Program-made: the position numbers and the translations under genes | Assembly (NCBI GenBank): GCA_964423785.1 | Contig: CAYRGZ010000002.1 | Span: forward strand, 1 to 49,612 | Reading direction: 5' to 3' | DNA: 49,612 nucleotides | Source: an uncultured Desulfobulbia bacterium | GTDB taxonomy: Bacteria; Desulfobacterota; Desulfobulbia; Desulfobulbales; S012-135 | Shown: positions 2,595-45,051 of the stretch, piece after piece | Layout of the letters: each line of letters opens with the position of its first letter | Numbering within the stretch: position 1 is the stretch's first letter | The notes under the pieces: generated by a model | Databases searched by the model: none | The model's input: only the letters and a program-made list of their open reading frames with translations | Told to the model about the DNA's origin: nothing

Positions 2595-4961
2595 ATGGCT
2601 GTGATGGCACGGAATGAACGGACAACTTGCAAGGAGCTGATCGAGCCGGCTCTCACCCAGGCCGGGTGGGAGTGGAAAGAGCAGCTGCGTATCGGCCCGG
2701 GCCGTGTCAATATCACCGGCGAGAGCATGTATGATGAGACACAGGAGATCATTGCCGATTATCTTCTGCTTTATCGTGGCATCCCGCTGACCATCCTCGA
2801 AGCCAAGGCCGAGTCCGAGAGTGCCGCCGATGGAATGCAGCAAGCTTCGCGCTACGCCCGCCGTTTGCTGATTCGATTCTCCCTGGCATCCAACGGCAAG
2901 GACTGGATTCTCACTGACAACGACACCGGTCATTTTGAGTCCCTCTCAGCACCGCCAACGCCCGAGGACATTGTCACCCGGCTTGGCGTCACTATTGATT
3001 GGGACAGGTGGGAATCCTCATTCACGGCGGGATACCACGTCGACCAAATCACCCGCAAAACGGTTCGCCCCTATCAGGAAATGGCGATAACCAAGACCCT
3101 TTGGCAGTTCGCGCAAGGGCAAACCCGAGCATTACTGCTCATGGCCACTGGTACCGGCAAGACCTTCGTTGTGTTCCAGCTCATCTGGAAATTGATGAAC
3201 GGTAATGCCCTCAAGCGGCAGCACGTGCTGTTTCTCACCGACCGCAACAGCCTTAAGGATCAGGCCTATCGCTCATTCGCAGCCTTTACGGCGGATGAGC
3301 GCGTCACCATCGACAAGGAAACCGTTGCCAAAGGGAAGCACCTGGTTGGCAAGGTGTTCTTCGCCAATTACCAGACCCTCGATGAGGAGCTGGATGGCAA
3401 AAAGGTCTATGAACACTACGACCCGGACTTCTTCGATCTCGTGGTGGTTGACGAGTGTCATCGCTCCGGGTTCGGCGACTGGTTCGGTGTGCTGGAGCAC
3501 TTTGGTTCTGCGCTGCAACTCGGCCTTACCGCGACCCCGCGCGAGCTTGAGGAGGGTAAGCGTGCGCTGACCGAGGAAGAGAAACGACGCGACACCTATC
3601 ATTACTTCGGCGAGCCGATCTACAGTTACAGCCTCAAGCAGGCCATCGAGGATGGATACCTCGTGCCCTATCTGCTCGAGGAGCGTATCACCAACGTCGA
3701 CGAAAATGGCTACACCGGCCCCGACGGCAAGCACTACACAACTTCGAACTTCGAGCGTGACATCCGTATGCCGGATCGCACCCGGGCTATCGCCGAGGAC
3801 CTGTGGGATATCTTCGGCAAGTACGGTCTGCGTGATGAAAAGACCATCGTTTTCTGCGTGGACGACACCCACGCCGCCTTCATGGCCCAGGAACTGCGTC
3901 GACTGGCCGGTGACAACGACTACGCGGCCCGTATCACCCGGGCCGAACGAAACAGCCACCAGTTGGAGCGCAACTTCGCTATCGTCGGTTCCGGCAAGCC
4001 GCGCATAGCCGTAACCGTTGATCTGCTGACCACCGGTTACGACGCGCCGGACGTGAGAAATATCGTCTTTGTTCGTCCGCTGCGCAGCGCGATCCTCTAC
4101 AAGCAGATGAAGGGGCGCGGAACGCGCCTCTGTGAGGATATCAACAAGCGTTACTTTACGATCTTTGACTATTCAGGTGCGAGTCAGCTTGAGGACGCCG
4201 AGTTCGACGGGCACCCCGCCAACCGGCAGAAGGGCGCGCAACCCAAGTCGAAGCCCAGGAGGAAGACAGGCGGCGAAACGACGCTCAAGCCGGTTGGTGA
4301 AGGCGTCTCCGTCATCATCTCGGCGACCAATCGTTATGTCTGCCTGGCCGACGGACGCAAGATTCCCTTCGAGGAATACACCGAGCAGTCACGCGAGTTC
4401 ATCCTCAGCGTTTCCACCAAAAGCCTGGATGAGCTGCTGGCCATCTGGATCGACAAGAAGAGCCGCAAGGAACTGCGCGAGGAGCTTCGGGACCACGACA
4501 TCTATCCTGCTGCTTTCCGCCATTATCTTGACCTTGCGGGTACCGACGACGTGGACATACTTGCCAAGATCGGCTTTAAGCTGGTGCGGGTTCCAACACG
4601 CCGTCACCGGGTCGACAGGTTCTGGGATGAAGAAGATTCATGGTTTCATGCCCAGATTCTCCAGGAGAAACAAGCGGAGATAATTCCTTTTCCATCTCGA
4701 GAAGAACTCCTGATGGCAGCGGAATCACAAGCACCTTACGGTTCTGATTCTTTCAAGCGGCAATTTTGGCAGGTCAGCCTGGATCATTACGCGCTGTTCG
4801 GCATAGACGATTTGGAACAGGCCCGCACGTATGGTGCGCCGCAGTTCGTGGAACAGTTCGGCAGCTTCCAGACGCTGACGCGTCGCTATGGGGGTGCACA
4901 GACACTCAAGGCTGATTTGGAAGCCGTGAAACAGCATCTTTACGTGCCTATGACCGTTTAG
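2595..4961 (+). CDS. hsdR: Type I restriction enzyme R subunit (HsdR), with EcoEI-R-type C-terminal domain
   Basis: The N-terminus NERTTCKELIEPALTQAGWEW is typical of the HsdR N-domain. SF2 helicase motifs are present: LLMATGTGKT (Walker A), VVDECHRS (DEAH box), LGLTATP and QMKGRGTR. The C-terminal tail resembles the EcoEI R C-terminal domain. An alternative start at 2604 has better SD spacing. Confidence 0.9.
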   Translation: MAVMARNERTTCKELIEPALTQAGWEWKEQLRIGPGRVNITGESMYDETQEIIADYLLLYRGIPLTILEAKAESESAADGMQQASRYARRLLIRFSLASNGKDWILTDNDTGHFESLSAPPTPEDIVTRLGVTIDWDRWESSFTAGYHVDQITRKTVRPYQEMAITKTLWQFAQGQTRALLLMATGTGKTFVVFQLIWKLMNGNALKRQHVLFLTDRNSLKDQAYRSFAAFTADERVTIDKETVAKGKHLVGKVFFANYQTLDEELDGKKVYEHYDPDFFDLVVVDECHRSGFGDWFGVLEHFGSALQLGLTATPRELEEGKRALTEEEKRRDTYHYFGEPIYSYSLKQAIEDGYLVPYLLEERITNVDENGYTGPDGKHYTTSNFERDIRMPDRTRAIAEDLWDIFGKYGLRDEKTIVFCVDDTHAAFMAQELRRLAGDNDYAARITRAERNSHQLERNFAIVGSGKPRIAVTVDLLTTGYDAPDVRNIVFVRPLRSAILYKQMKGRGTRLCEDINKRYFTIFDYSGASQLEDAEFDGHPANRQKGAQPKSKPRRKTGGETTLKPVGEGVSVIISATNRYVCLADGRKIPFEEYTEQSREFILSVSTKSLDELLAIWIDKKSRKELREELRDHDIYPAAFRHYLDLAGTDDVDILAKIGFKLVRVPTRRHRVDRFWDEEDSWFHAQILQEKQAEIIPFPSREELLMAAESQAPYGSDSFKRQFWQVSLDHYALFGIDDLEQARTYGAPQFVEQFGSFQTLTRRYGGAQTLKADLEAVKQHLYVPMTV

Positions 4962-4983: not shown

Positions 4984-5259
4984 ATGGGAACGAAGAAAGT
5001 GAAGTACAACAAGACCGGCATCGAACAACTCCCCAATAACAAACCTGTCCTGTACAGGATTGAAAGTGCCGGTGGGAACCAGAATTACGTTGGCATTGCC
5101 AAGCGCGGGCGGGTCCGGGAACGTATAGCCGAACATCTCGGCGAGATTCCCGGGACAACTGTTCGTATCGAGCAACTCAGTTCGATCGAAGAAGCACGGC
5201 AAAAAGAGGCGCGCGTAATCAAACGAAACCAGCCGAAATACAATAACCAGGGGAAATAA
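4984..5259 (+). CDS. Stand-alone GIY-YIG nuclease domain protein
   Basis: 91 aa. PVLYRIES...NYVGIAKRGRVRERIAEHL...EEARQKEARVIKRNQPKYN fits the GIY...YIG...R...E...N layout. The SD is AAAGGAG. The stop overlaps the hsdM start (TAATG). Confidence 0.75.
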   Translation: MGTKKVKYNKTGIEQLPNNKPVLYRIESAGGNQNYVGIAKRGRVRERIAEHLGEIPGTTVRIEQLSSIEEARQKEARVIKRNQPKYNNQGK

Positions 5260-7352
5260 TGCGAAAAAACAATGACCACCGCAGGCGGGAAGTTCAACAG
5301 ATCGTCAAGAATGCCTGCGACCAGCTCAACCAGGAGGGCGTGGACGCCCGCAACTACGTTGAGCAACTGGCCTGGCTTTTCTTCCTCAAGGCCTTCGACG
5401 AGGCTGAGTCCCGCAAGGAAGAAGAAGCCGCTTTCGACGACACGCCTTACGAACGCCGTCTCGCCGGCGAGTTCGCCTGGTCGTCCTGGGCCAAGGACAC
5501 CGATCACCCGGACCGGATGCTGGAATTCGTGCAGGGCAAGCTCTGGACCAAGCTCACCAGTCCAGACCCCAAGAAGGGCCTGGGAGATGACCTGCTGGCC
5601 CAGCGTTTCCGACGTATTTTTGACAACGTGCGCAACTACTGCCGACGGGGCGCGTCCTTCGCCAAGGTCGTTCAGCAGGTCGACAAACTGCATTTCTCCG
5701 ATGAAACCGATGTCATCGTGCTCTCGGAGATTTATGAAGATCTCCTCAAGCGCGTGGCCGCCGACTCCGCCGGGTATGCGGGCGAGTTCTACACGCAGAG
5801 GCACATCATCCGCACCATGGTCGAGGTGGTCCAGCCCAAGGCAGGGGACCGTGTTTACGACCCCTGTTTCGGCACGGCGGGTTTCCTTGGCGAGGCCGCC
5901 GATTACATCCGTGAAAGCGCTAACCTCAGCGGCAAGCAGCTTGACAAACTCCAGCGCCACACCTTCTACGGTATAGAAATCAAGCCGCTTACCTACCTGC
6001 TGGGCACCATGAACATGATCCTGCACGGCATCGAGGGAGCCAACCTGGAACTGGCCAACACACTGGAGCTTCACAGTTCGAACGTGCCCGAGAAGGACAA
6101 ATACACCGTCATCCTCTCCAATCCGCCCTATGGCGGGAAAATGGCCCAGAGTCTCCAGAACAATTTCCGTGTCAAATCCAGCGCCACCGAGTGCCTGTTT
6201 GTCCAGCACATCATGGCCAACCTCGCCAGGGGCGGGCGCGCCGGCGTGGTCATCCCGGAAGGTGTGCTTTTCCGCGGCGGGCCCGACCAGAAAGTCCGCA
6301 AGGAACTGCTGGAGCATTTCAACGTCCACACCATTCTTTCGCTCCCTGCGGGCTGTTTCCTGCCTTACACGGGCGTCAAGACCAATGTCATCTTCTTCGA
6401 CCGTCCGAAGACGCAGCCCAAGAGCGGGCAGATGGCCACCAGGAGCGTATGGTTCTATGAACTGACCAACGACGGCTTTGAACTCAAACAGACCCGCAAG
6501 CCTATCGAGGGCAGCCAGATTCCCGACTTCCTGAAAAAATGGAAAAGGCGAGTCACGGGCGAGAACTCCTGGACGGTTCCGGTCGAGGAGATCGTCGAGC
6601 GCGGCTACGACCTGTCGGCCAAGAACCCCAACCGCAAGGACGATTACGAACACCGCCCGGCGCTGGAATTGGTGCAGTCCATCAAGGCTAAGGAAGAGCG
6701 TATCATGCATCTGTTGGTTGAGCTGGAAGCATCATTGTCACGTTTTGATGATATTGATACAGCTTGGCCTACTGTGAAGCTTCGGAAACTAGCACAGAGG
6801 ATTGGTGGTGGTACGCCATCGCGAAAGACCCCAGCCTATTGGGGTGGATCAATTCCTTGGTTCACCGTTGCAGACTTGGAGGACGTTGATGATATTCAGT
6901 GTTTGTCAACAAGTCGAGAATGCATCACGCAACAAGGACTTGAACGGAGTGCGGCAAAATTGATCCCTTCTGGGGCAGTTGTTTTCTCAAGTAGAGTTGT
7001 TGTTGGCAAAGTCGGCATTGCCCAAAATGCCTTGGCAACTAACCAAGATTTTTCATCTTTTGTTCCCTCAGATGATATTACACCAGAGTTCTTAGCCTAC
7101 TATCTAATCAAGGTTAAGAATGACCTTCGAGAGCATCAGCGAGGAGCAACGATCAAAGGTGTTACAACAAAAGTCTTGGACGCAATTGATGTTCCAAAAG
7201 CTCCTGTAGATGCACAACAAACATTAGTAGATGTTATTAAGGAATGTATGGCTTATATCGCTGAGATTGAGAACCTTAATGGCTACCCATCGGAAGAAAT
7301 ATCCCAACTCCGCAAATCGATTTTACGCAAAGCTTTTGCAGGAGAACTATGA
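5259..7352 (+). CDS. hsdM: Type I R-M methyltransferase fused to a single HsdS target-recognition domain (HsdM-HsdS fusion)
   Basis: The HsdM N-domain (ARNYVEQLAWLFFLKAFDE) is followed by SAM motif I VYDPCFGTAGFL and catalytic motif IV SNPPYGG. From about aa 490 there is an HsdS-type TRD (VKLRKLAQRIGGGTPSRKTPAYWGGSIPWFTVADL ... GATIKGVTTKVL) ending in the conserved HsdS helix LRKSILRKAFAGEL. Confidence 0.9.
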   Translation: MRKNNDHRRREVQQIVKNACDQLNQEGVDARNYVEQLAWLFFLKAFDEAESRKEEEAAFDDTPYERRLAGEFAWSSWAKDTDHPDRMLEFVQGKLWTKLTSPDPKKGLGDDLLAQRFRRIFDNVRNYCRRGASFAKVVQQVDKLHFSDETDVIVLSEIYEDLLKRVAADSAGYAGEFYTQRHIIRTMVEVVQPKAGDRVYDPCFGTAGFLGEAADYIRESANLSGKQLDKLQRHTFYGIEIKPLTYLLGTMNMILHGIEGANLELANTLELHSSNVPEKDKYTVILSNPPYGGKMAQSLQNNFRVKSSATECLFVQHIMANLARGGRAGVVIPEGVLFRGGPDQKVRKELLEHFNVHTILSLPAGCFLPYTGVKTNVIFFDRPKTQPKSGQMATRSVWFYELTNDGFELKQTRKPIEGSQIPDFLKKWKRRVTGENSWTVPVEEIVERGYDLSAKNPNRKDDYEHRPALELVQSIKAKEERIMHLLVELEASLSRFDDIDTAWPTVKLRKLAQRIGGGTPSRKTPAYWGGSIPWFTVADLEDVDDIQCLSTSRECITQQGLERSAAKLIPSGAVVFSSRVVVGKVGIAQNALATNQDFSSFVPSDDITPEFLAYYLIKVKNDLREHQRGATIKGVTTKVLDAIDVPKAPVDAQQTLVDVIKECMAYIAEIENLNGYPSEEISQLRKSILRKAFAGEL

Positions 7353-8374
7353 TGCATCGAAGCCAATTGCCAGACAACTTCAGTATGGAGGTGAGCATCC
7401 CGACAGACGAGGATGGGTATCTGGATCGGGAGTGCCCCAACGATGTGTGCGAAGCGGCGTTCAAGATTCTGGTCGATGACTGGAAAGACAAGGTTCGCGA
7501 TGAAGAGGTGTTCTGTCCTGTGTGCGGACATACGGCGACATCCGACAATTGGTTGACACATGATCAGCTTGAATACTGCAAGAGCCGTCTTATGGCAGAA
7601 TTCATGCCGATGCTTGACGCGGAAATGAAACGCATGGCGCGTGATTTCAACCGCAGTATGCCCCGGGGCGGTCTGATCAGCGTATCCATGAGCTACAAGC
7701 CGTCTCGACCTATGACTGTGGTTCCTCTGGAGGCTGCGGAACTGATGCGACAACGGTACGTCTGTGAGTCGTGCGGTTGTCGGTATGCAGCGATAGGGGC
7801 GGCGTTTTTCTGCCCGTCCTGCGGCCACAACTCGGCGCGGACAGCGCTCGTAGAAACCCTGGCGACGGTTCGAAAGTTGCCTGAAGTACGAAAAGCCCTG
7901 GAAGCGGGACTCGACCGCGATGCTTCGGCCAACGCCTACCGACTCATACTCGAAGAAAACATGGGCAAGCTGGTGGCGGCCTTCCAGCGATTTGCTGAGG
8001 CTACCTTCGAGGCGCTTCCCAACGCGGGCGATTTCAGCCCTCGCCGCAACCTGTTCCAGAACCTGCCCCAGTCAAGCGACCTATGGGAACAGGCCATCGG
8101 TGTCCGCTACGAAGCCATGCTTACACCCACAGAGTGGAACGAGTTGCAACGCTGTTTTCAACAACGCCACATCCTGGCGCACAAGGATGGCATAGTGGAC
8201 GAGGATTACCTGAAAAAGACGGGCGACCGGCAGTATCAACCCGGCCAACGCTTGGTCATCAAAGAAGCCGATGTCATGCGCTTCACCGACCTGGTTAAGA
8301 AGCTCACAACTGCTCTGCATGACGCCTGCGTAGATGCAGCGGAAAATGAAAGGATTCATAACCAACGTGGTTGA
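7349..8374 (+). CDS. Double zinc-ribbon protein with C-terminal HEPN-like (Rx4H) domain
   Basis: 341 aa. The start overlaps the hsdMS stop (ATGA at 7349-7352). There are two 4-Cys clusters: CPNDVC...CPVCGH and CESCGC...CPSCGH. The helical C-terminal half carries QQRHILAHKDG (R273-x4-H278, nt 8165-8182). Confidence 0.6.
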   Translation: MMHRSQLPDNFSMEVSIPTDEDGYLDRECPNDVCEAAFKILVDDWKDKVRDEEVFCPVCGHTATSDNWLTHDQLEYCKSRLMAEFMPMLDAEMKRMARDFNRSMPRGGLISVSMSYKPSRPMTVVPLEAAELMRQRYVCESCGCRYAAIGAAFFCPSCGHNSARTALVETLATVRKLPEVRKALEAGLDRDASANAYRLILEENMGKLVAAFQRFAEATFEALPNAGDFSPRRNLFQNLPQSSDLWEQAIGVRYEAMLTPTEWNELQRCFQQRHILAHKDGIVDEDYLKKTGDRQYQPGQRLVIKEADVMRFTDLVKKLTTALHDACVDAAENERIHNQRG

Positions 8375-8378
8375 GGAA

Positions 8379-11300
8379 ATGTCACAATCCCATATCTGGC
8401 AGGTGCTCGACCATCTTCGGGACGAGTTACCCGCCCATGATGTGCCTGTGACTTTGGCCGCGCTTCTTTATCTCCGTTGGGCCGATTTCCAGGAAGCTGA
8501 GCAGGAGGCCATCGCCGCCTTTGACGAGGCTGATTACGACCCGGTGCTGCCCGCCGCGCTACACTGGCGATCCTGGTATGACCTTCCGCCACATGATCTG
8601 CCGGAACTTTTCTCGGACCGGCTTGCTCCGGCATTGGAGCGGCTGAACAATTCCCGTCACAATCCACTCGCGACCCACCTGCACCGAATTGCATCGGCGG
8701 TGAAGGACTTGGGGCGGCTGTCGCCCCACGCTCTGGAAGCGCTCATCCACTGGCTGGCACAGCAGCCCTTCGAAACACCATCGGACCGGCGCGCCTTGTT
8801 GGACGTTTTCGACGCCTTGTTGGACAGAGTTCCTGACAAGTCTTTCAGTGAGTTTCGCACCCCAGCCGCCATCGTCAGCCTGCTTGTCGAGCTGGCCGCG
8901 CCCGCGCCGGGGGACCGTGTCTACGACCCGTGCTTTGGTACGGCGGGTTTGCTCACTGCCGCCTGTGACCACGTTCTGCGCAAGGGGAAGGACCGCTTCA
9001 GCCGCAATGGCGGTCCTGGTTTGATGGTTTCGGGTGTCGAGCTGAACGCAGATGCCTTTGTCATCGGCTTGACGCGTCTTGCTTTGGCGGGTGTCGATGA
9101 TCCACAGCTTGAACTGGGCAACAGTTTGGAGCGCACGCCACCCAACAACCCGCAACAGGATGGATTTGACATTGTGTTGGCCAATCCCCCCTGGGGCATG
9201 CGTGTTCAGCCCGCTGGCCTGGATCATTTCCCCGTGCGGACCACGGACACAACGGGGCTGTTCATCCAGCATGCCTTGACCCAGCTTCGGCCTGAAGGCC
9301 GGGCCGTACTGGTTGTTCCCGAGGGGTTCCTTTTCCGAGGAGGTCCGGAGCGTAAATTGCGCAGGATGCTGGTGGAGCAGCACACGGTTGAGGCGGTTGT
9401 GTCTCTCCCCGCTGGCGCGTTCCTTCCTCATACGGGCATCAAGGCCAGTGTCCTCTTACTGCGTCGCGGTGGCTTGACAAAGCACATCCGAATGGTGGAT
9501 GCGGAATTCTACTTTGAGAAAGGCAAAGGGCGGAAACCCGCCACCATCCAACCTGAACAAATACAAAAGCTGGCCAAAGAAATCCGAACGCCAACGCCAT
9601 CCAGGAATTGCTGGGATGTGGATATTGAATCGCTGGCCGAGGTGGATTGGGATTTTACCCCGAAGCGCCGCGACCGGAGCGGCCTGCTCAGTATCCTTGA
9701 TTCGCTTCGATCCGAAGTGGACGTCCTTCCCCTCAAGGAGTGCTGCAAGATTTCAAGGGGGCGGATATTTCCGCGAGACCAACTCCTTGACGAGCCTCCA
9801 CCTCGCCCAACGGCCTGGGAACAGGCAAGTTTATTCCCTGAAACGAATACGGTACGGCAGCGAACGCTCTTCGATGCACCGATTATTCCCTATGTTCGGA
9901 TAAAGGATGTGCAACGGGGGCAGGCTTCCAGGGGGTCGTCCTGGTTATCCCCGGATGCGGCCGCTTCCGTGGATGCCAGGTGGAAGCTCAAGGCGGGCGA
10001 TGTGCTCCTTTCCAAATCCGGCACAATCGGCAAGGCCGGGGTGGTCCGAAACGGGGCGGTGGGAGCGGTTGCCGCCAGCGGCCTGTTCGTTCTTCGCCCC
10101 GACCAGGACCGCCTCGATCCGCACTTCCTTCTGGCTTACTTCGATAGCAGTGAGTGCCGGGCATGGCTGGATGACAAGGCCCGCGGGGCAACGATTCGAC
10201 ACCTGTCCAGGCGTATCCTGGGTGAGATGCCTGTGCCGCTGCCACCGCTTCAGATTCAGCAGCGTGTTGCAACTCAGCACCGCGGACATGGTGTCGATGT
10301 ATTGGCGTTCCTGGCCCAGCTCCTGACGCAGGGAGAAGATGATCCCATTGCACAGTGGCTCGACAAAGCTGCAACGGGATTGCCTCTCGATGTTGATGCG
10401 GTTGACGATCCACTGGACCTTGCCCCGCTGGATCGCCTTGCTTCGGAGGTTCGCGAGATTCGCAACCGGGTCGCGCACGACAGCCGGGGTGACAGCGCCC
10501 TTGCGGCGTGGATTCTCGCCTTTAACGAGGCAGTCTCCGGTCTTCGTGGTGTCCGCGCTATCCCGCAAGGACCAGGCCTGCTGAGCGTGTTACAGGAATC
10601 GGTCCGGGCATTGAAGGCGACGATGCCGCTGATTGCGGGGCATCTTCCGAATGAAGCTAAAGCGAGAAGTCTGACCAGGCTGGTGTCAACCTGGTTGGAC
10701 CGTGCGTGCTCGGCATTGCTTGGCAAGGTGAAAGTGGTCGTAAGCGCGGATGCCGCGACGTTGCCTGTTGGCGAAATGGTGGAGGTTACCCTCAGCGTTC
10801 ACAACCAGGGACCGCTACCATTACGCAATCTGAACATCTCGACAAGTCCTGACTGGGGGCGGGGTGATACCGACTATTTGGCAGAAGACGCAAAGATGGC
10901 TGTCGAACTGGTCGGGACCGGCCCCAAGAAAGCTGGTACGTTCACGCTGTCAGTGGAGTGGTCAGCCAACACACTTGACGGACAGACAACAGATGGGGTT
11001 CGCGAGATCGCGTTCGACGTCGTCGATACGATCCCGGATACCGGCGGGAACGATCTGGATATAGGCGGAAGCCCCTATGTTTGCGGCGATCCGGTCAGCC
11101 CCGAACGTAACGATGTGTTTTTCGGTCGTGAGGAACTACTGGAGCAGATCCGCCGTCAGGTTATCCGGAGTGGCAACGTGGTCCTGCTTGAAGGCAACCG
11201 CCGTTCGGGCAAGTCTTCTATCCTCTGGCATCTGGAGGGCACGAATGGTGTCCCCGGCTGGTTGGGTGTCTATTGCAGCCTGCAGGGTGCGGAGGGCAGC

Positions 11301-12305
11301 AAGGATGGCGTGGGCGTACCTACTGTCGAAGTGTTCCGGGAAATGGCCAAGAGCATTGCCAGGAGCATGCAGGCACTTGACGATAAAACACCTCTGCCGG
11401 ACGGCACCATACTTCCACCGGGCAAGAAACTCGGTATAGCCAAAGCATGCCGCAACGGGATCGGCGAAACGTCATCGTTTTCAGACTTCCGCGATTATGT
11501 TGAAGTCGCTCTTGAAACTCTGGCTAAACACGATCTTGGCCTGCTGTTGATGCTGGACGAGTTCGACAAGCTCCAGGAGGGCATTGATAGCGGCGTCACG
11601 TCGCCACAAGTCCCGGAAAACATTCGTTTCCTCGTTCAGTCCTACACGCGGTTTTGTGCAATCCTGACCGGCTCCCGGCGGTTGAAACGGCTGCGCGAGG
11701 AGTACTGGTCCGCCCTTTATGGTCTTGGAACCCGTTTTGGTGTGACCTCGCTGCCCGCCGAGTATGCCCGGCGTCTAGTCACCGAGCCAGTGAAGGGACG
11801 TCTTACCTACTCACGGGAAGCCGTTGAACGGGCGATCTTCCTGACCTCCGGGCAACCGTATCTCCTTCAGTGCTTGTGTAACCGTATTTTCGACATGTCC
11901 GCCCAATTGAAGACTCGGTCAGTGACGCTTGACTTGGTGGATCAGGCAGGAAATGCCCTTGTCGAGGACAACGAGCACTTCGCCAGTCTATGGGACTACG
12001 CCCAGTCTGATCGAAGGCGGTTCATCCTCGCGCTCTGCCACAAAGAAGCCGACAGCCCGGATCTCCTTCGACTGGGGGTAATTCAAGAGAGGTTATTCAG
12101 CCATGGCATCGAGGTCAGTGACGAGACCTTGATCGAGGACCTTGAATTCCTGCGAGAACTCGAACTCATCAAACTCGTAGGCGAAACCGGCGGAGGTCAC
12201 TACGTGTTGGCCATCCCGCTGATGGGGGCCTGGATCGAGAAACAACAGGACTTCGCGGCCGTCAAAAGCAAGGCAAGGTTGGAAACGGAGGATCTACATG
12301 AGTAA
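8379..12305 (+). CDS. Multidomain fusion: N6-adenine DNA methyltransferase, HsdS-type TRD, HEPN-like motif, beta-sandwich, P-loop (ORC/STAND-like) ATPase and a winged-helix-like tail
   Basis: MTase motif I is VYDPCFGTAGLL and motif IV is ANPPWGM (nt 9183-9194). The TRD reads LPLKECCKISRGRIF...GDVLLSKSGTIGKAGVV...GATIRHLSRRILGEMPVPLPPLQIQQRV. The HEPN-type motif EVREIRNRVAHD lies at nt 10461-10478. An Ig-like stretch follows (VEVTLSVHNQGPLPLRNLNIS...GTFTLSVEWS). ATPase motifs are FFGREELL...VVLLEGNRRSGKSSIL (Walker A) and LLLMLDEFDKL (Walker B). The listed ORF starts at 8334; the ATG at 8379 has SD GAGGAA and lies 4 nt after the upstream stop. Confidence 0.8.
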   Translation: MSQSHIWQVLDHLRDELPAHDVPVTLAALLYLRWADFQEAEQEAIAAFDEADYDPVLPAALHWRSWYDLPPHDLPELFSDRLAPALERLNNSRHNPLATHLHRIASAVKDLGRLSPHALEALIHWLAQQPFETPSDRRALLDVFDALLDRVPDKSFSEFRTPAAIVSLLVELAAPAPGDRVYDPCFGTAGLLTAACDHVLRKGKDRFSRNGGPGLMVSGVELNADAFVIGLTRLALAGVDDPQLELGNSLERTPPNNPQQDGFDIVLANPPWGMRVQPAGLDHFPVRTTDTTGLFIQHALTQLRPEGRAVLVVPEGFLFRGGPERKLRRMLVEQHTVEAVVSLPAGAFLPHTGIKASVLLLRRGGLTKHIRMVDAEFYFEKGKGRKPATIQPEQIQKLAKEIRTPTPSRNCWDVDIESLAEVDWDFTPKRRDRSGLLSILDSLRSEVDVLPLKECCKISRGRIFPRDQLLDEPPPRPTAWEQASLFPETNTVRQRTLFDAPIIPYVRIKDVQRGQASRGSSWLSPDAAASVDARWKLKAGDVLLSKSGTIGKAGVVRNGAVGAVAASGLFVLRPDQDRLDPHFLLAYFDSSECRAWLDDKARGATIRHLSRRILGEMPVPLPPLQIQQRVATQHRGHGVDVLAFLAQLLTQGEDDPIAQWLDKAATGLPLDVDAVDDPLDLAPLDRLASEVREIRNRVAHDSRGDSALAAWILAFNEAVSGLRGVRAIPQGPGLLSVLQESVRALKATMPLIAGHLPNEAKARSLTRLVSTWLDRACSALLGKVKVVVSADAATLPVGEMVEVTLSVHNQGPLPLRNLNISTSPDWGRGDTDYLAEDAKMAVELVGTGPKKAGTFTLSVEWSANTLDGQTTDGVREIAFDVVDTIPDTGGNDLDIGGSPYVCGDPVSPERNDVFFGREELLEQIRRQVIRSGNVVLLEGNRRSGKSSILWHLEGTNGVPGWLGVYCSLQGAEGSKDGVGVPTVEVFREMAKSIARSMQALDDKTPLPDGTILPPGKKLGIAKACRNGIGETSSFSDFRDYVEVALETLAKHDLGLLLMLDEFDKLQEGIDSGVTSPQVPENIRFLVQSYTRFCAILTGSRRLKRLREEYWSALYGLGTRFGVTSLPAEYARRLVTEPVKGRLTYSREAVERAIFLTSGQPYLLQCLCNRIFDMSAQLKTRSVTLDLVDQAGNALVEDNEHFASLWDYAQSDRRRFILALCHKEADSPDLLRLGVIQERLFSHGIEVSDETLIEDLEFLRELELIKLVGETGGGHYVLAIPLMGAWIEKQQDFAAVKSKARLETEDLHE

Positions 12306-13917
12306 TCCGAGGTTCCCCATATTAGGTACCGAGATCCCGCCGATGCTCGGCCGCGCCGGAATCATGCATCGCATCTGGAACGATCTCACCAAGACCACTC
12401 CAAGCAACCTTTCGGTGATCGGGCCGCGATTCGTGGGCAAGACAGTCATCATGAATGCCCTGGCCCAACGTATCACCGATGAAGAATCCCCCTATGAGTT
12501 CGTACTGTATTGGCACCTTGGTCATGTAGCACCGGCATCGGATGAAGATTTTATAGCCCAGCTCTGCGAGCGACTGCGCGACTGCCTGGCTCAATCACAA
12601 GCGGATACTTCCGAATATCGCAAGCACCTTGAGGATCATTCCTTCAGCAATCTGGCGGAAGTAGCTGAATTGCTTGACGGGGAGGGTTGGTCTGTTCTCA
12701 TGCTTTGGGATGGCTTCGACAAGCCTTTGGGCCAAGGAAAGCTGACGGGACACCTCTGGGATCAGATGCGGACGATGTTCTACGGCAAGAAGCACAAGAT
12801 AGTTACGGCAACGCGAAAACCGCTGAGCGAGTTGATCCGCAGTCAGGATGCCATCACCAGTCCGTTCTGGAATATCTTCGACATGAATCCCGTGCGCGTC
12901 GATGCCTTCGACGAGCAGGACCGTGAGGCGATCATCAAGGAATTATCGGCGCACAGTTTCCTGGCGGGGGCGAAAACCGAACTGGCCAACTGGTCTGCAG
13001 GATTTCCACCGCTTTTCCTGGGAATTTTGAATCAGATTGCCTGCGACATTCCGGCCGGGCAGGTGGACAACGAAACCGTCAACCGGGCGGCGAAGAAGGC
13101 CCTGGAGAATCTCTCCGATGTGATCTCGGCGATGTGGCAAGACTGTCCCGCTGGTGCAAAAGATCTCTACAGCCATCTTGTAGATCGTAGAGATTTTCTC
13201 TTCGATGATGCTGGGAAGGATGAAAGGGACTGCTTGATCGAGAAGGGCTTCGCCAGGAAAACGGGCAATAAGTTGACAGCCTCGTGTCGTATGCTTCAGG
13301 AGTATATCCAGGGTGCCGGGCCAGATGCCGGCAGCATGGCGCGCCTATTCAGATCATGGGATGATTATCAGGCTAACATCCGCGGTTTGCTCGAGCGCCG
13401 ACTGGCTCATATATCACGTTTTGATGATCGGCTGCATCGGCTCGTGGCCCGAGCTATTGAGGATATTCCTGATTTTCCTGACGACTGCCTGAACAATCTG
13501 ACGGGGATCAGAGATACCGCCTTGCAGATTATTTGGCAACGCGAGTTCGGGCCTGAAATGCGCGTGCCTCAGAATCTTGTTTCCTACTGGACGGAAAATC
13601 CACGCAGTAACCACAGATTGATTTCGGACATGATGCAGTCAGACAACTGGAGGATTTCTGACGATCCGCTGAATCAAATTCGCCTGTTGGGACTGTTGAC
13701 CGGGTGCCATAGAGATTTCGACGCGAAAGCGAAGGTCACCACAAAGGATACCTATGTTCTGATTGATGCCATTCATAACTTCCGAAACCGCTCCCAGCAC
13801 CCGGATGGACAAGCCATCCACCTTGGCGTGGCCGTCGCAGCGATCATGAGTTGCTTGGAACTACTGGCTTGCCTGGAACGGGAAAGCGTGACTTTGATAC
13901 CTGGGGGAGGGGCATGA
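12298..13917 (+). CDS. P-loop ATPase with C-terminal HEPN-like (RNxxxH) domain
   Basis: 539 aa. The start overlaps the upstream gene by 8 nt. Walker A is VIGPRFVGKTVIMNAL and Walker B-like is VLMLWDGFDKP. The C-terminal motif is IHNFRNRSQHPDG (R496-x4-H501, nt 13783-13800). Confidence 0.7.
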   Translation: MSNPRFPILGTEIPPMLGRAGIMHRIWNDLTKTTPSNLSVIGPRFVGKTVIMNALAQRITDEESPYEFVLYWHLGHVAPASDEDFIAQLCERLRDCLAQSQADTSEYRKHLEDHSFSNLAEVAELLDGEGWSVLMLWDGFDKPLGQGKLTGHLWDQMRTMFYGKKHKIVTATRKPLSELIRSQDAITSPFWNIFDMNPVRVDAFDEQDREAIIKELSAHSFLAGAKTELANWSAGFPPLFLGILNQIACDIPAGQVDNETVNRAAKKALENLSDVISAMWQDCPAGAKDLYSHLVDRRDFLFDDAGKDERDCLIEKGFARKTGNKLTASCRMLQEYIQGAGPDAGSMARLFRSWDDYQANIRGLLERRLAHISRFDDRLHRLVARAIEDIPDFPDDCLNNLTGIRDTALQIIWQREFGPEMRVPQNLVSYWTENPRSNHRLISDMMQSDNWRISDDPLNQIRLLGLLTGCHRDFDAKAKVTTKDTYVLIDAIHNFRNRSQHPDGQAIHLGVAVAAIMSCLELLACLERESVTLIPGGGA

Positions 13918-16900
13918 CGACACCAGACCCTCGTCACTCCGGCCGTTCCGTAGACCGCCGCGGCGATGCCCGTATCATCCGCGGCGCGCTCGACGAGGTC
14001 AAGGCCATCCAGACTTTGCTCGCGGATATCTACAAGGATGCGGGTGATGGCCGAACTCTGGTGCGGGAGCTTGTCCAGAACGCGGATGATGCCGGTGCGG
14101 GGCGGCTGCTGTTCGTTGTCGTGGAGCAGGGGTGGGAAAACGCCGAAAACGGCCTGCTCCGTGGTCCTGGGCTGCTCGTGGTGAACAACGGCCCTTTCCC
14201 GGCCAGGGACCGCGACGCGCTGCACCAGGCTCTCGGCGGCTCCAAGGCGGATGATACCGGAAAGGTAGGCAGGTTCGGGATCGGGCTCAAAAGCGTCTTC
14301 CATATCTGCGAGGCCATAGTGTACGTGGGAGCCGAAGCCGGCACCTTGCGGCCTGGCGCGTTGAACCCCTGGGCCGGAACGGGTGAGCAGGATGACGCGG
14401 ACCCGCTGCACCCGGACTGGGACGAGGTGGGAGATAATGACCTGGCCATGCTTGAGAAAGCGGCAACCGAGCTGCTCGGGCGGTTCGACAATGGTCTGCT
14501 CCTGTGGATCCCCCTGCGTCGGCCCGCCCATCTCGATCGGGCCAGGGACCGGCCATACGGCCTGGGCCAATTCTGCCCGACAGCGGAAGAAATAGCCGGC
14601 TGGTTTAATCGCCCCGCCACCCTGGCGCTTTTGCTCGCGCAGTGTGGCTACCTGCGTTCTATCGAGGCGGGGCGGGCTGAGACCCCGGGCGGTCTTGCCG
14701 CTCGCACGCCGCTTGCCCGTGTGTCCCGTCCCGGCTTCGAGCCAGGAGCATGGGTCGGCCGTTACGACGACGATTCCACCGTGTCAAGGCGCTCATTTGA
14801 GGGAGCCATTGAAAGCAACGCGGGGGAGAATGGTGCGGACAGATGGGCGGTCCAGGGTGTAGAGGCATTGGGGCACGACAAGCTCTTTACGCTTCGTTCC
14901 AGCGGGGATTGGCCCATTGATCTCGTTCCGAAAGACGGGCATGTCGCCGAGGTCCCCAGGAAGGCCCTGGCACATGCCGCCGTGACCGTTCTTCGCGCCA
15001 ACAGCTCTCATGGGAACCGTGCTCTACGGGTTCGCTGGGCTGTGTTTTTGCCCCTCGATGACGCTCCTGTCCCGGGATCCAACACCTTGGTAGAGACTAC
15101 CGGGAGCGGCAAGGTGAACGGGGCCTGGGATATTATTCTGCATGGATATTTCTGGCCCTCGCACGACCGCAGATCGATTCCAGGCGTCACCGATGACGAC
15201 GACGGCACGGGGGACGGAGCCATGCGCGTCCGTTGGAACCGGAGCGTTCGGGACGAGTTGCTCCTTCCCCTGGTGCCGGCCGCCCTTGCCCGGGAGACGA
15301 ACAACCTGGACGCCGGGGTAGCGTGGCAATTTTTGCAGGCTGTCACTGAGACACGGATCGTCCGGGATCACCGCGAAGCTGTTACACGGCGCCACCTGCT
15401 CCTTCCAACCCTCACTGAAAGCGGCATCCGTTGGGACAAGAAAGCGAGAGAGGGGATGCGGATTTTGTCCATCCCAGCGTGGACAAAGGCACCTGAAGCG
15501 GTACGCAAGTCGTTTGCCGCGTTTTTGTCAAAACAGCCGGACAAGGTCGTGTTTATCGATAACGACGCACCGAGACTCGGCGGGGAACCGGGCCGATGGC
15601 CTGCGGACTGGCTGAAACGGCTGCTGGACTGCGTGCCGGCGGAGGCCTTTCACACGCCCCGGGACCTGAGATGGATCGAAGTCCTTGTTCGCCATGTCAT
15701 GGGATCCGGGGACTCTTTGGACGATGAGCTTGTCATTATCGTTGCCCGTTGGATTGGCCAGCGGATCGGCGAAGGGGTGTTGACACCCACGACGGGCGGA
15801 CCGGTCGACGATACGCGGGAGGACTTGCGGGAAGCCTGGCGGAGTCTTTTTTCCGCGTTCCCCGAAGAATGGCTGGTGGATGCCCCGGTGGACAGTCAAC
15901 ACGCCGTGGTTGAGCTGGCGGCCGCAGGCCTTGTCGGTGAGGGCCTTCTGCCGATCCCGCTCGGACGTCGGCCAGGCGCGCCCCCACGATCGCGGCCGGA
16001 GCCACAGCGCCTGGACAGTGCGCTGCTGGAGCTCGGAAGACGCCTTGCAGGGCCGGAAGGGACATCACAGCGCACCCGGAGATCCAGGCTGCTGCTGGCG
16101 GAGTCCCTCCTTGCCGTGCGCGAGGATATTCCTCTCGAGGAAGAGTTGGAATCCTTACCGCTGCTGCGTGCGCGCAGGTTGCCGGAGGACAGGGACGAGG
16201 CCTGGTCGATTGGGGATCTGCGTCGTCAGAATGAACGTCATCGCGTGTTCGCCCGGCCCAGCACCGACGTCGAAGACAGTGAGAGTGAGGAGGATGGCTC
16301 CTCCCTCGAAGCGCCGTCAGACCCCAAGCGCGCAGTGCAGGAGCTGTCCAGGGCGATCGGTGAACCTGTGTGGCTTGTCGAGGCAGCGGTCGGGGCTGCG
16401 GTTCGCGCGCCGGTTCCTGCGGCCGGCCCGCTGGCCAGCGCAGTACTATGTTCCGGGGCTATCCGGTCCGATCCATTGGAGCGACAGCCGCTTCTGCAGA
16501 GGATTTCGGCGGATTTGGTGGCGCTCGCAGCCGACGACGGAGACACCGTGCGTAATGCGATTCGGGCGCTGCTGACCGGGAGAGTCGCGGACGACGCGAT
16601 GGATGGCAGGCTTTACTATGTCCGGAGCCAGGACTCGGAACAGGCGGAGAACCAGAAGACGCTTGAAATTTTGCTCCGGCTCCTCAACCGGTCATGGTGC
16701 ATGGTCAGACCGGCGCTGATCGAATCGCTTCCGCATGCACTCGTGGAGGACCTCCTCGTCAAAGCCGTCGATGCAGGCGTACTCCATGATCTGCTGCGTG
16801 AGGCGCTGGATGAACCTGTCGACTGGAGCATGCTCGAACAATCAGAAGCCCTGCACCTGCTCAGGCACCTGTTCGAGACTGCACCCGAGAAGAAGGCGGC

Positions 16901-19900
16901 CTGGCGGGAGATGCCGCTCCACCGGGGGATCGACGGTGAACGCGGCCCCATTGACGGGCGGACATTTCGTCTCGCAGGGGATCTTCGGCCGCCGGCGGAT
17001 CTCGCTGCGGAAATCCGGCTGCTTGCCCCCGATCCAGAAGCAGCCGACCTCTATCATGATATTCGGGAGCTGGATGACGACGGCATTCTCCGGGCGATGC
17101 TGCAGAGTAAACGTCCCTGGCGGTTTGCCGACCAGATCATCAGGGGCCTTCAGCCTGACAACGAGGGGCGAGTGACCCTGCCAAGGGATAAGGAGCTTTT
17201 AGACCTGCTCAGACAAACCGATTGGTTGCCTGATAGTAACTCCCAAGGAGGCATTGCCCCCCAACAGATCCTCCTCCTTCCGAATGCATTGGAGACAGGT
17301 GTCTCAGTGCTCGCGAGCTCAGGCGCCCTTGGCGGCTACCGTCGCACCAATGACGTTCTGCCGGCGGTATGGAGCGCGGCGGGAAAAATCGTCCACGAGA
17401 TCCTCGGTCGTCCGGGTCGCTCTCGTCAGGTGCAGCATCTCGCTCAAGCCCTGGAGCCGGATCGGGTCGCCCGGGTCGACAATGGAGCATTCCTGATTCT
17501 GCCGGAAGCGCAGGCAATCGACATTTTGCTGATAAGGGACGCTCTTGAAACGCCGCTGGCAGGCTCTCATCAAGGGTGGGCGCTTCTCCATGCGGCGGCG
17601 GAAGCGGTCAAGGGCACCAAGCAATCCTTTGAGGATGTCACAGCGGCTGCTCGTGATGCCGTCATGGAGCTGGCCCGGTCGCTTTGTGCTCCCGCCCCTG
17701 CCTCGCGCCAGCTGGACATGTTAAAAACACTCTCGGCATCACGTCCCGCGAAAGACTCGGCATCCGGTCGTCTGTTTGGCAGACTCTTGGAATGCTTTGC
17801 GCGCACCGACGGGTTTTTCGAGGAGGTCCTGCCCGGCATGGACCTGCCGACCCAGGACGGCCGGTGGCATCCATCCCGCGAGGTTGCCCGGTCGGCCTCA
17901 GGCGTCGCGCGACGGCATCGAGTCCTGTCCGATCTTCGCGCCAGCCTTCGGCTCGACAGTGATGAGCCTGTCCGGGAGCAGGCGGCGGCTACGAAAGCCC
18001 GGATCGGACCCGGCACGGCCGATGCGCTCGCGAAATACTTCGAATCCTGGTCGGAACGAATCCCGCGCGGCGCTGTCGGCGCCTTCCTCGGGTTGCTCGG
18101 AAACGGGAAGGGCGATGCCATAGCGCGGCTGGCGGAAGAGTGGCTCGGGGATGATGTCAGTGTGGAGGGGATGCGCGCTGATCTAATCCCCGAGGATGAG
18201 AATGATTTCTGGGATGAGGAAGGGAACAATTTCTGGGACAAGGTCAAGGTCTTCGTGTCCGGGAGTGTCGCCCGAGGCAGCCGTGTGGAGGCGGTCAACG
18301 TCCTGGGGGAGCGGATCGAGATGGACGCCGACTCCGATCAGGATACCATCCTTGCCACCGACCCCATCCGGTGTCACTCCGTGCTCGGTGATTTCTGGGA
18401 TATTACGCTTCGCGATGTCGACCCGCAGCGCCGAACGGCCCCCGAACTTATCGGGCTGCTCGGAGGGACGGTAGAGTGGTGGGCTGTCCACATTCTGCGG
18501 GTTGATCCGCAGGCCGTGCGTGCCTGGTGGTCGCGCTGGGGGACGGGATCTCAGGCTCAGGTAGGACCCGTGCGGGCATCCATTCTGGCCCACCTGCCGC
18601 TTACCCTTCACCAGCTTGATGTGCGCGAATGTCCACCGCTTTGGGATGCGCTACGCGATGCTCAGCGGGCCCAGCGAAAACGTGAACAGGCCCCGCCGGC
18701 GCAGCTTCGGGATGCGATGAAAGCGGAACGGAGCGCGCTGGACCGGCTTGCGTCCCTCATTTGCGATGACCCGCAGCACCAGCGTTTCCTTTGGGAGCGC
18801 GTCCAGGGGCTGATACAACGCTTCGGCTACCGCGAAGACAGCGTTCTGCTTGAGCTCGCGCAGAATGCGGACGATGCCCTCGCTCAGGCCGCCGAGATCG
18901 CTGGAGGTGAGCTTGCGCCTGCCGCGCGCAGGCTCCTTGTCCGGATTCATGAGGTCGACGGCATACCGACGTTGGATATCACGCATTATGGACGACCGAT
19001 CAACGATACGGGAGGTGCCTCTTTCCCCCAGGGGCGCGAGCGGCAATGGGATCAGGATCTCTACTTCATGATGCTGCTGAACCTGAGCGGCAAGCCTGGC
19101 GAGGCGCCGGGCCACAGTACGGCCGCCTCGACGACCGGACGTTTTGGTCTCGGGTTCAAGTCGATCCATATCGTGTCGCGGAACCCGTCGGTGGTCAGCG
19201 GTTTTTTGGCCTTCTCTATCGCCGGAGGGTTGCTTCCCTCGGAGCAACCTGTTCCCGACGATCCCGACTTGCAGCCGGTGGAGGGATACCGGGCGACGCG
19301 AGTTCGATTGCCCTTGCGTGATGACCTGGATCCAACAGACCTTGTGCGGAAACTGTTTCAGCGCTTCATGTATGCGCGTACGCTCCTCCCTGTGTTCGCC
19401 CGTCAGCTTCGCGAGGTTGTTGTTGAAGGTGGCCCCTTCCCTGGAATCGCCAGGTTCAAGGAGGAGGTCATCATGGGCGCGCCAGGGTGGGCCGTTGCGA
19501 CGGAAACCACCGAGCTGCCGAATCACGAGCGGTGGCGCCTCGTGCGTTTCCGGCCTCCTGGCGCGAAGGGAAGCACGGTCGCGCTTGTGTTCGGTCTGAT
19601 AAACGGCGCTCCCGCCCCTTTCCCGTCGGATATGCCGTTCCTGTGGAATGTGACCCCTACGAGCGAGGGCTGGGGCTGCGGCTATGCGATCAACGGTCCC
19701 TTCAAACTGGACCCGGGAAGGACCCATGTCTCGTTGGATAGCGAGGAGACTCTCGCAGTCGTCGGCATGCTCGGAAAGGCTCTCGGCGCCGGCCTGGTTG
19801 AGCTGCACGACGCGCTGGAGGCTTCTGCGGGCGCCCTCGCACACGACCTGCCCACCACCGACAGGCTGCCCTCCTTCCTTGCGTCACTCTGGACCGTGCT

Positions 19901-27915: not shown

Positions 27916-27930
27916 GCCTCCCCTGGATGG

Positions 27931-28962: not shown

Positions 28963-28975
28963 CCGTGCAGGCGGT

Positions 28976-38476: not shown

Positions 38477-38501
38477 CGTCCGGCTCCAAAAGGATCGTTC
38501 C

Positions 38502-41822: not shown

Positions 41823-42006
41823 GCCCCCCCGCCTCCATAGCCATTGTTGGTTTCTGGTTTGGAGTCTACGCTGTTTTACTCTTGCTGGAGCCAAGCTCTT
41901 CTGGCTCCACAGAGCCGGACATCAAACTGGCGGCGTAACCCACGAAATTATCCACCTATCCACCTTATTCCGGCCGCCAAACTGTCCAACGATAGGGGGC
42001 CCACCT

Positions 42007-45035: not shown

Positions 45036-45051
45036 AGCAACGGTCGTGCCA
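45036..45051 (-). promoter_or_regulatory. Sigma-54 (-24/-12) promoter
   Basis: The minus strand reads TGGCAC-GACCG-TTGCT, a perfect match to TGGCAC-N5-TTGCW. It begins 3 nt after the stop of the second sigma-54 activator gene and lies about 90 nt upstream of the ATPase ATG at 44945. Confidence 0.7.

Follow-up and report, generated by a model that had tools for sequence, protein, structure and literature searches.

Introduction

In the EcoprrI-PrrC system, the HEPN ribonuclease (RNase) PrrC is held in check by the type I restriction-modification (R-M) enzyme EcoprrI, and acts as a second-line effector tied to the state of that enzyme (Anantharaman et al. 2013, PMC3710099). The same survey noted that, in R-M systems, fusions join HEPN domains to nucleases, to helicases and to ATPases "but not to the methylases", and the main text of a 2026 survey of STAND proteins never mentions a methyltransferase. 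BREX pairs a methylase that carries its recognition domain on the same chain with the ORC/STAND-like ATPase BrxC (PMC12839542), and Bell et al. (2024, PMC11090510), in work on CoCoNuT, describe defence superoperons that are headed by RtcR and often contain type I R-M and Druantia III. Here we analyse a 49,612-nucleotide (nt) stretch of DNA from an uncultured Desulfobulbia bacterium (contig CAYRGZ010000002.1 of assembly GCA_964423785.1, hereafter the window), in which a single gene, the target, joins an HsdM-like methylase and a target-recognition domain (TRD) to a P-loop ATPase, and is followed by a second gene, the partner, encoding a STAND-type NTPase with a HEPN-like C-terminus. We lean towards the view that target and partner together form a two-protein anti-phage module of the NLR-like (nucleotide-binding leucine-rich repeat-like, or STAND) type, usually lying within a type I R-M operon.

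The target and its partner

The domains of the target follow one another in the order HsdM-like methylase, single TRD, helical bundle, putative beta-sandwich, P-loop STAND-like ATPase and C-terminal region. Positions are those of the window, with residues in amino acids (aa) and E standing for E-value.

8379-12305, + strand: target open reading frame (ORF), 1308 aa, a single uninterrupted frame
8385-8681, + strand: HsdM N-terminal helical domain, a weak match (Pfam HsdM_N, E 5.8e-4, below cut-off; the solved HsdM chain 5ybb_A aligns from residue 5)
8802-9668, + strand: N6-adenine methyltransferase domain (Pfam N6_Mtase, aa 142-430, E 2.4e-43; PADLOC MTase_I, E 1.1e-68)
8925-8948, + strand: motif I DPCFGTAG, aa 183-190
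9183-9194, + strand: motif IV NPPW, aa 269-272
9885-10271, + strand: one HsdS-type TRD, fused to the methylase (Pfam Methylase_S, aa 503-631, E 1.7e-7)
10296-10754, + strand: all-alpha bundle of six helices in the model, RNRVAH at the end of helix 3
10461-10478, + strand: RNRVAH, aa 695-700
10731-11063, + strand: putative beta-sandwich (Ig-like)
11088-11897, + strand: P-loop NTPase of the AAA_16/STAND type (Walker A and B; Pfam AAA_16, nSTAND1)
11193-11219, + strand: Walker A GNRRSGKSS, aa 939-947
11544-11567, + strand: Walker B LLMLDEFD, aa 1056-1063
11898-12302, + strand: conserved C-terminal region (DNEHF, LWDY, RRR, LRELEL), possibly a winged helix
12298-13917, + strand: partner gene, 539 aa, STAND/NACHT-like NTPase with C-terminal HEPN-like domain
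12421-12444, + strand: partner Walker A
12697-12720, + strand: partner Walker B
13309-13914, + strand: partner C-terminal HEPN-like domain, partner aa 338-539
13783-13800, + strand: partner RNRSQH, aa 496-501

The ATG of the target at 8379 is preceded by a GAGGA ribosome-binding site, lies 5 nt past the stop of the upstream gene at 8374, and is backed by homologues, whose alignments begin at residue 1-2. An original prediction, made by a model from the letters of this DNA, had described the target as a methylase, TRD, HEPN motif, beta-sandwich and ATPase on one chain. All of the motifs that it quoted lie where it had placed them, RNRVAH at exactly nt 10461-10478, although its residue numbers R710 and H715 were counted from an earlier ATG at 8334 and become R695 and H700 here. 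Taken as a whole, its observation is partly confirmed and its interpretation partly supported.

The start of the partner overlaps the stop of the target by 8 nt (ATGAGTAA), and a partner homologue is found directly 3' of the target in every locus that reaches far enough. The distance from target stop to partner start is at most 20 nt in 65 of 67 loci, mostly as an overlap of 1-11 nt with a median of 7 nt, and the pairing persists in a version from Janthinobacterium in which the target gene is split, as well as on an Acinetobacter plasmid.

This arrangement is widespread. Scanning a single genome for each species gave 77 target loci from at least 15 phyla, with relatives covering target residues ~1-1305 at 32-67% identity. 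Hosts outside the Pseudomonadota include members of the Desulfobacterota, Planctomycetota, Gemmatimonadota, Acidobacteriota, Cyanobacteria, Spirochaetota, Verrucomicrobiota, Armatimonadota, Chloroflexota, Nitrospirota, Myxococcota, Latescibacterota and Binatia, and there are many pseudomonadotal hosts, among them the complete chromosomes of Pseudomonas sp. KNUC1026 and Variovorax paradoxus. The distribution over phyla is patchy, and one copy is plasmid-borne. An exhaustive HMMER search with aa 640-1308 as query (clusters at 50% identity, E<=1e-30) matched 301 clusters, most of them of ~1300 aa with the match in the C-terminal half, and database names of members are "N-6 DNA methylase", "type I restriction enzyme M protein" and "hypothetical protein". 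A Pfam census of 37 divergent full-length members found N6_Mtase and AAA_16 in all 37, Methylase_S in 34, nSTAND1 in 21, ATPase_2 in 17 and NACHT in 5. The helical region used alone as a query gave just 2 hits, and the phage genomes searched for the target C-terminal half contained no homologue.

A long ORF of this composition could be an artefact, its parts joined only through an error in sequencing or assembly (a missed stop, for example, or a frameshift), and two observations might be read in that sense: in Janthinobacterium the two halves are separate genes 33 nt apart, cut at the boundary of the TRD and the helical domain, and the database entries include many fragments, 713 aa long at most. 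Against this, a single ORF of ~1300 aa, with coverage of residues 1-1305, is present in independent isolate assemblies and complete chromosomes, including those of Pseudomonas sp. KNUC1026, Variovorax paradoxus NBRC 15149, Novipirellula and an Acinetobacter plasmid. Because the full-length ORF recurs in independent assemblies, a missed stop or frameshift is ruled out, and the probability of an artefact is practically nil. The same domain order, which the original prediction had proposed to seek in other genomes, is thus present at ~1300 residues in 77 loci and in most of the 301 clusters, and the fusion is genuine and conserved.

The methylase half

The HsdM-type methylase and its motifs are well supported: the best PDB sequence matches of the target are solved HsdM (5ybb_A, E 6.5e-45) and HsdS chains (E 3e-8), and the N6_Mtase domain carries a motif I for S-adenosylmethionine (SAM) in which YDPCFG is conserved at >=90%. 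The "complete HsdS-like target-recognition domain" of the original prediction holds as far as the TRD itself is concerned, but not as a whole HsdS, for one TRD is fused to the methylase with no second TRD and no coiled-coil conserved regions, and in the model it is followed by the short helices of a globular bundle and no long coiled coil.

Conservation within the family suggests what this half may do. In a 71-sequence alignment of the target family, the first residue of motif IV is N in 31 members, D in 4 and S in 1, as against V in 15, A in 14, Q in 3, H in 2 and T in 1, which makes 36/71 with N/D/S and 35/71 with V/A/Q/H/T; in 12 members the motif has lost its aromatic residue. The TRD is not hypervariable, with a mean pairwise identity of 0.41 next to 0.39 for the methylase domain of the same protein, unlike the neighbouring HsdS, which falls to 0.28 where HsdM and HsdR of the same loci stand at 0.67 and 0.70. 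A specificity common to the target TRD and its cognate HsdS was considered and ruled out, since the TRD scores 32.9 bits against the HsdS of its own locus and 33.3 bits against those of other loci, with uniform ranks. A motif IV that is degenerate in many members beside a retained SAM motif, and a TRD that neither diversifies nor matches the local HsdS in particular, speak for a conserved binding module, and against a diversifying modification enzyme, as the role of the methylase-TRD half in the family as a whole.

The alternative is a target that functions as methylase and specificity subunit in a single chain, in the manner of type ISP, type IIG or BREX PglX enzymes, and that methylates an asymmetric site of its own as a mark of self. 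The partner and the fused ATPase would then regulate HsdR or load it on unmodified DNA, and the locus would carry two specificities. In the window protein both motif I and NPPW are intact, and its N-terminal half is clearly derived from HsdM/HsdS; HsdR lies immediately upstream of the target in the loci L021 and L062 and on the Acinetobacter plasmid, where neither HsdM nor HsdS occurs as a separate gene. Canonical motif IV, [NDS]PP[YFW], is confined to loci containing HsdR, being found in 18/39 loci with HsdR upstream and in 0/17 with neither HsdR nor HsdM upstream, counts that are not phylogenetically independent. Type I systems with two different M subunits are also known (PMC5100572). The same motif is nevertheless non-canonical in 35/71 members, including L062 (APPW) and the plasmid (AHPPVG), both with HsdR directly upstream; restriction without modification would be self-destructive there. 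The TRD, moreover, does not diversify as specificity subunits do, PglZ, BrxL and BrxC were not detected by PADLOC, and the obligate STAND-HEPN partner is left unexplained. We consider a working enzyme of this kind unlikely, and the loading of HsdR with a second specificity unlikely as well. A second HsdM with a TRD does lie in the same operon, at 5259-7352, as had been noted; that the locus would therefore carry two DNA specificities is doubtful for the family, in which the TRD is conserved at 0.41 and motif IV is non-canonical in about half of the members.

The ATPase and adjoining regions

The ATPase is the best-conserved part of the target, with a mean pairwise identity of 0.57 compared to 0.39 for the methylase and 0.24 for the helical domain. 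GNRRxGK[TS]S and [LV]LMLDEFD are invariant in the 71 sequences, so that the Walker A/B NTPase is not degenerate; degeneracy was among the findings that would have told against the original prediction. For the window protein itself, AAA_16 and nSTAND1 match aa 904-1173 below the Pfam cut-offs. The regions on either side are less readily assigned. The Ig-like stretch is weakly supported, with DUF11 at E 0.001 and 19.8 bits against a cut-off of 24.6, and DUF7507 and integrin-Ig also below threshold; a winged-helix tail, likewise predicted, is weakly supported by a single Arg_repressor winged helix-turn-helix match at E 0.06. A sequence search of the target C-terminal half against solved structures gave nothing useful.

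HEPN-like domains in the partner and in the target

Pfam assigns the N-terminal half of the partner to the STAND NTPases, with NACHT in 61/71 homologues, AAA_16 in 69/71 and NB-ARC in 38/71. The C-terminal ~200 residues were modelled with AlphaFold2 (AF2) at a predicted local distance difference test (pLDDT) score of 92.9, and among the top 20 hits of that model in a Foldseek search of the PDB, 18 are HEPN-MNT toxins, HEPN-domain proteins or Csm6. The match to 2hsb has a probability of 1.00 and a template modelling (TM) score of 0.68, and 1wwp and 1jog are also recovered, with individual E-values of just 0.2-1. In HEPN domains the Rx4-6H motif is located where helix 3 ends or in the first part of the loop after it (Anantharaman et al. 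2013, PMC3710099). The partner motif, RNRSQH, closes model helix 146-163, the penultimate helix, and the C-terminal domain thus resembles HEPN both in the position of the motif and in its fold. The motif histidine is invariant in a 71-sequence partner alignment, and the motif is kept in 72/74 partners, as R[ND]xxxH in 24 and as G[DN]FGQH in 48. A search of the partner sequence against solved structures returned nothing useful.

The original prediction had placed a "classic" HEPN motif in the target instead. An AF2 model of aa 632-792, built with a 68-sequence alignment (pLDDT 90.7), places RNRVAH at model residues 64-69, where it closes the third helix (51-69) and runs into the next loop, so that the motif in aa 640-792 occupies the place expected of Rx4-6H. 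At the aligned position R[ND]xxxH recurs in 25/71 relatives from very different clades, where shuffling expects 0.74 with a maximum of 3, and the motif is therefore ancestral and selected in some lineages. In seven planctomycete and spirochaete relatives, a Cys-rich insert of ~45 residues (CxxC...CxxC, Zn-ribbon-like) aligns to window aa ~680-695, in the helical domain beside the RNxxxH position.

From such observations it could be argued that the RNRVAH domain is a catalytic HEPN RNase, and that one polypeptide is at once sensor, switch and effector. RNRVAH fits Rx4-6H with the typical N after R, it stands at the end of helix 3 of a confident model, it recurs well above chance, and the only Pfam families hit more than once by the helical region in per-member scans were the HEPN families Swt1 (4 members) and RiboL-PSP (2 members), with a best E of 0.016; DUF4145 and Abi_2 were each matched once. 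These matches are all sub-threshold and span ~17 residues round the motif, however, and for the target bundle itself no HEPN model was significant, HEPN_Swt1 matching over 17 residues round the motif at E ~0.1-0.2. Foldseek recovered only generic four-helix bundles from the PDB (best E 0.5), and only Avd-like and other generic bundles from the BFVD viral structures, with HEPN proteins missing from the first 50 hits in either database, although the same procedure readily finds HEPN for the partner. The motif is gone or degenerate in 46/71 relatives, and a profile of the helical-domain family against PDB sequences yielded nothing useful, with Csm6 at E 0.44. The idea that the target bundle and the partner HEPN domain are duplicates was dropped after hhalign gave a probability of 0.7% for a relationship between them. 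The bundle is thus predicted to be HEPN-like in its motif and in the position of that motif, its fold being unproven, and so "classic HEPN" is unproven for the target chain; a catalytic role for it is conceivable but doubtful. Such a role would be compatible with the two-protein module and does not exclude it. On present models, HEPN appears better supported in the partner than in the target.

Genomic context

The order most commonly seen is an RtcR-like CARF-AAA-HTH (helix-turn-helix) activator, a sigma-54 promoter, HsdR, HsdM, a two-TRD HsdS, target and partner. In the window the genes and signals upstream of the target are as follows.

630-2126, + strand: RtcR/PspF2-type CARF-AAA-HTH sigma-54 activator at the operon head (Pfam; PADLOC RtcR_PspF2, E 1.7e-138)
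2237-2252, + strand: sigma-54 -24/-12 promoter TGGCATGGGCATTGCT (TGGCAT-N5-TTGCT)
2595-4961, + strand: HsdR, with intact PD-(D/E)xK, GTGKT and DECH
5259-7352, + strand: canonical HsdM fused to one TRD
7349-8374, + strand: accessory Zn-ribbon protein, 341 aa, PDC-M14A-like (PADLOC, E 1.3e-21)

Upstream genes were counted in the 56 loci with at least 7.5 kilobases of upstream sequence. HsdR and HsdM are both present in 37 of these, 27 of which also have RtcR; a further 2 have HsdR only, 6 RtcR only and 1 an HsdM-like gene only, and 10 have none of the three. HsdR is thus found upstream of the target in 39/56 loci, and an RtcR-like gene in 33/56. The element TGGCA[CT]-N5-TTGC occurs in the RtcR-HsdR spacer of 24/39 related loci, and the activator followed by a -24/-12 promoter is the layout predicted for an RtcR-regulated sigma-54 operon. 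More than 40 related loci encode a separate HsdS of ~400 aa with two TRDs, unlike the HsdM-TRD fusion of the window.

Departures from the common order include a plasmid of Acinetobacter ursingii that carries the carbapenemase gene IMP-4 (NZ_MH220285, 6623-14406), on which an HsdR-like gene, a target homologue and a partner follow one another. The target homologue is the one with AHPPVG, the HsdR-like helicase has LSDTSN instead of DECH as motif II, and a WYL regulator lies upstream in place of RtcR.

Several neighbours in the window lie outside the conserved module. The PDC-M14A-like gene was rejected as a core part, since it is found in just four related loci, between HsdS/HsdM and the target. 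A 94-aa ORF without a Pfam hit (2308-2591, + strand), between the sigma-54 promoter and hsdR, appears by eye to be staphylococcal-nuclease-like (DGDTF...GYDAPE) and is found at the same place in four related loci, and a 91-aa GIY-YIG ORF (4984-5259, + strand) between hsdR and hsdM recurs in two. Downstream, the ATG of a sacsin/TmtA-like protein of ~2590-2612 aa with an N-terminal ATPase (13914-21689, + strand) overlaps the stop of the partner (ATGA), and is itself overlapped by a DrmD-like SNF2 helicase (21686-24379, + strand; PADLOC, E 4e-288), which is accompanied by no other DISARM genes. Both were set aside as parts of the system because, translationally coupled as they are here, they are not conserved beside the target.

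The window as a whole is a defence island, in which two RtcR activators head long defence operons on opposite strands. The second RtcR/PspF2-type CARF-AAA-HTH activator (45054-46724, - strand) has the promoter TGGCACGACCGTTGCT at 45036-45051, a perfect -24/-12 match, and downstream of it are Druantia III-like genes (32255-44945, - strand), comprising DruH3 (1130 aa), a 2073-aa helicase with an MrfA Zn-binding domain, a 417-aa protein and a 674-aa AAA_15/AAA_21 ATPase that is PDC-M55A/NsnB-like. An 838-aa ORF beside the second activator (47006-49522, + strand) has no Pfam or PADLOC match. A polysaccharide export cluster (25786-31507, - strand; YjbH, Wzz-like, and Wza-like with SLBB repeats) divides the two operons, and its high G+C gives rise to long spurious antisense ORFs.

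This setting bears on a further possibility, that the target is an orphan or regulatory methylase-ATPase with a role outside defence, in epigenetic control or DNA repair, which has simply travelled along with R-M genes. The TRD shows the conservation known from orphan methylases, databases annotate the target family only as "N-6 DNA methylase", and no experimental phenotype is on record. The target nonetheless sits in type I R-M operons and defence islands, its distribution over phyla is patchy and includes a plasmid-borne copy, the catalytic residues of the methylase are lost in half of the family, and it is paired with a STAND-HEPN protein, all of which make a function outside defence very improbable.

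A proposed mechanism

The best reading of the locus is still a STAND switch that couples recognition to an effector. The domain architecture, the pairing of the genes, the patterns of conservation and the promoter are observed, and from them we infer a ligand, an activation step, an RNase activity and a role in defence along the following lines. The HsdM-TRD half would act as a sensor head rather than primarily as a modification enzyme, and would bind a conserved ligand, possibly DNA in a given sequence or modification state, or a factor aimed at type I methylase cores. The P-loop ATPase would turn ligand binding into a nucleotide-dependent switch or oligomerisation, whereupon the translationally coupled STAND-HEPN partner may be recruited or released as an RNase effector, with the RNxxxH bundle of the target possibly adding to the RNase output. 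Where HsdR is adjacent, DNA and RNA cleavage could form two layers, as in EcoprrI-PrrC, and the RtcR-like CARF activator with its sigma-54 promoter would put the operon under inducible control, with RNA ends that carry 2',3'-cyclic phosphate as a plausible inducer.

Several points weigh against this proposal. With 10/56 loci lacking a nearby R-M gene or RtcR, the link to R-M is not obligatory, and the window protein, with its intact NPPW, may truly methylate DNA. The STAND matches of the target ATPase in the window protein are below threshold in Pfam. The HEPN assignment of the partner comes without Pfam or PDB sequence-profile support, the HEPN calls resting on Foldseek hits at E 0.2-1 plus the motif. 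As 48/74 partners have G[DN]FGQH instead of RNxxxH, most of the family may have lost RNase activity or have it in an altered form, and whether a target has RNxxxH is no guide to whether its partner does. Finally, no defence phenotype is on record for any family member.

A more elaborate possibility, to which we assign a low probability, is that the HsdM-TRD half is an integrated decoy within a sensor/helper pair of the NLR-like kind. A catalytically dispensable copy of the type I methylase core would bait phage anti-restriction factors, such as the DNA mimics Ocr and ArdA, Stp-like peptides or SAM depletion; their engagement would switch on the fused ATPase and license the HEPN RNase of the partner, and abortive infection would follow at the very time that restriction is being disarmed. 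The loss of the catalytic motif in half of the family, the retention of the SAM motif, the conserved TRD and its lack of resemblance to the local HsdS, and the obligate second STAND protein all fit such a decoy.

Comparison with known systems

If the proposed two-protein module is correct, a large family without an assigned function is a distinct anti-phage module, in which a restriction methylase and its recognition unit have been reused as the sensor of a STAND switch, and in which sensing and killing are divided between two co-translated STAND proteins. Annotation pipelines probably count the genes of this family as extra methylases and so inflate predicted methylation specificities, and the motif IV pattern, with no canonical example among the 17 loci that lack HsdR and HsdM upstream, offers a simple rule that would flag non-catalytic members. 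The family is not described in the literature searched, which covered PADLOC candidate names, methylase-STAND fusions, the 2013 HEPN, 2026 BREX and 2026 STAND surveys, and passages of the 2024 CoCoNuT paper (PMC11090510) that mention neither the methylase-STAND fusion nor the partner. Were the target bundle to prove a HEPN domain, which is unproven, it would be a counter-example to the 2013 observation that methylases are not among the fusion partners of HEPN.

Judged by sequence, just the N-terminal half of the target qualifies as HsdM/HsdS-derived, its first 640 aa being homologous to HsdM plus one HsdS TRD. It shares the one-chain methylase-TRD layout with type ISP and type IIG enzymes and with PglX, and differs from R-M and single-chain enzymes in the degenerate motif IV of half of its members, the conserved TRD, and the want of coiled-coil conserved regions and of a second TRD. 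PADLOC found none of PglZ, BrxL, BrxA/BrxC, MAD1-8 or DrmA/DrmB/DrmC in the conserved module, and against NCBIfam models the target scores 70 bits for MAD2 (cut-off 720) and 20 for PglX (cut-off 500). Because the signature genes are absent and these models fall far below threshold, membership of MADS, BREX or DISARM was rejected. The position of an RtcR-like CARF-AAA-HTH gene at the 5' end of a long unidirectional defence operon, of which the window has two, recalls the RtcR superoperons of Bell et al., with the difference that the McrBC-type genes of CoCoNuT were not found in the window.

In its manner of working, the module would by analogy be most like EcoprrI-PrrC and the Avs/bNACHT STAND defences. 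With the latter it shares a P-loop STAND-type NTPase as sensor-effector switch, HEPN as a known class of effector, and residence in defence islands. It departs from them in that the sensor is a type I methylase and TRD, not TPR, WD40 or another surveyed sensor, that sensor and effector lie on two separate co-translated STAND proteins, and that the Pfam STAND hits of the target are below threshold. The division of labour has a parallel in paired plant NLRs with integrated decoys, such as RGA5/RGA4 and RRS1/RPS4, where one of two adjacent NLR/STAND genes carries a copied host-target domain and the other is the executor. No homology is implied, and a decoy role for the HsdM-TRD half is drawn by analogy only.

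The likeness to PrrC and RloC lies in an NTPase and a HEPN RNase encoded within an hsdR/M/S operon, as suggested here by the 37/56 loci with HsdR and HsdM upstream. PrrC, however, is one protein with an ABC (Rad50-like) ATPase, whereas the present module has two STAND-type NTPases, one of which carries its own HsdM-TRD copy, and occurs also without adjacent R-M genes. Both NTPases match AAA_16, NACHT and STAND models, not ABC, and the module therefore does not belong to the PrrC family. If the two-protein reading holds, it would represent a second, independent answer to the problem that PrrC solves, namely what to do when type I restriction is challenged.

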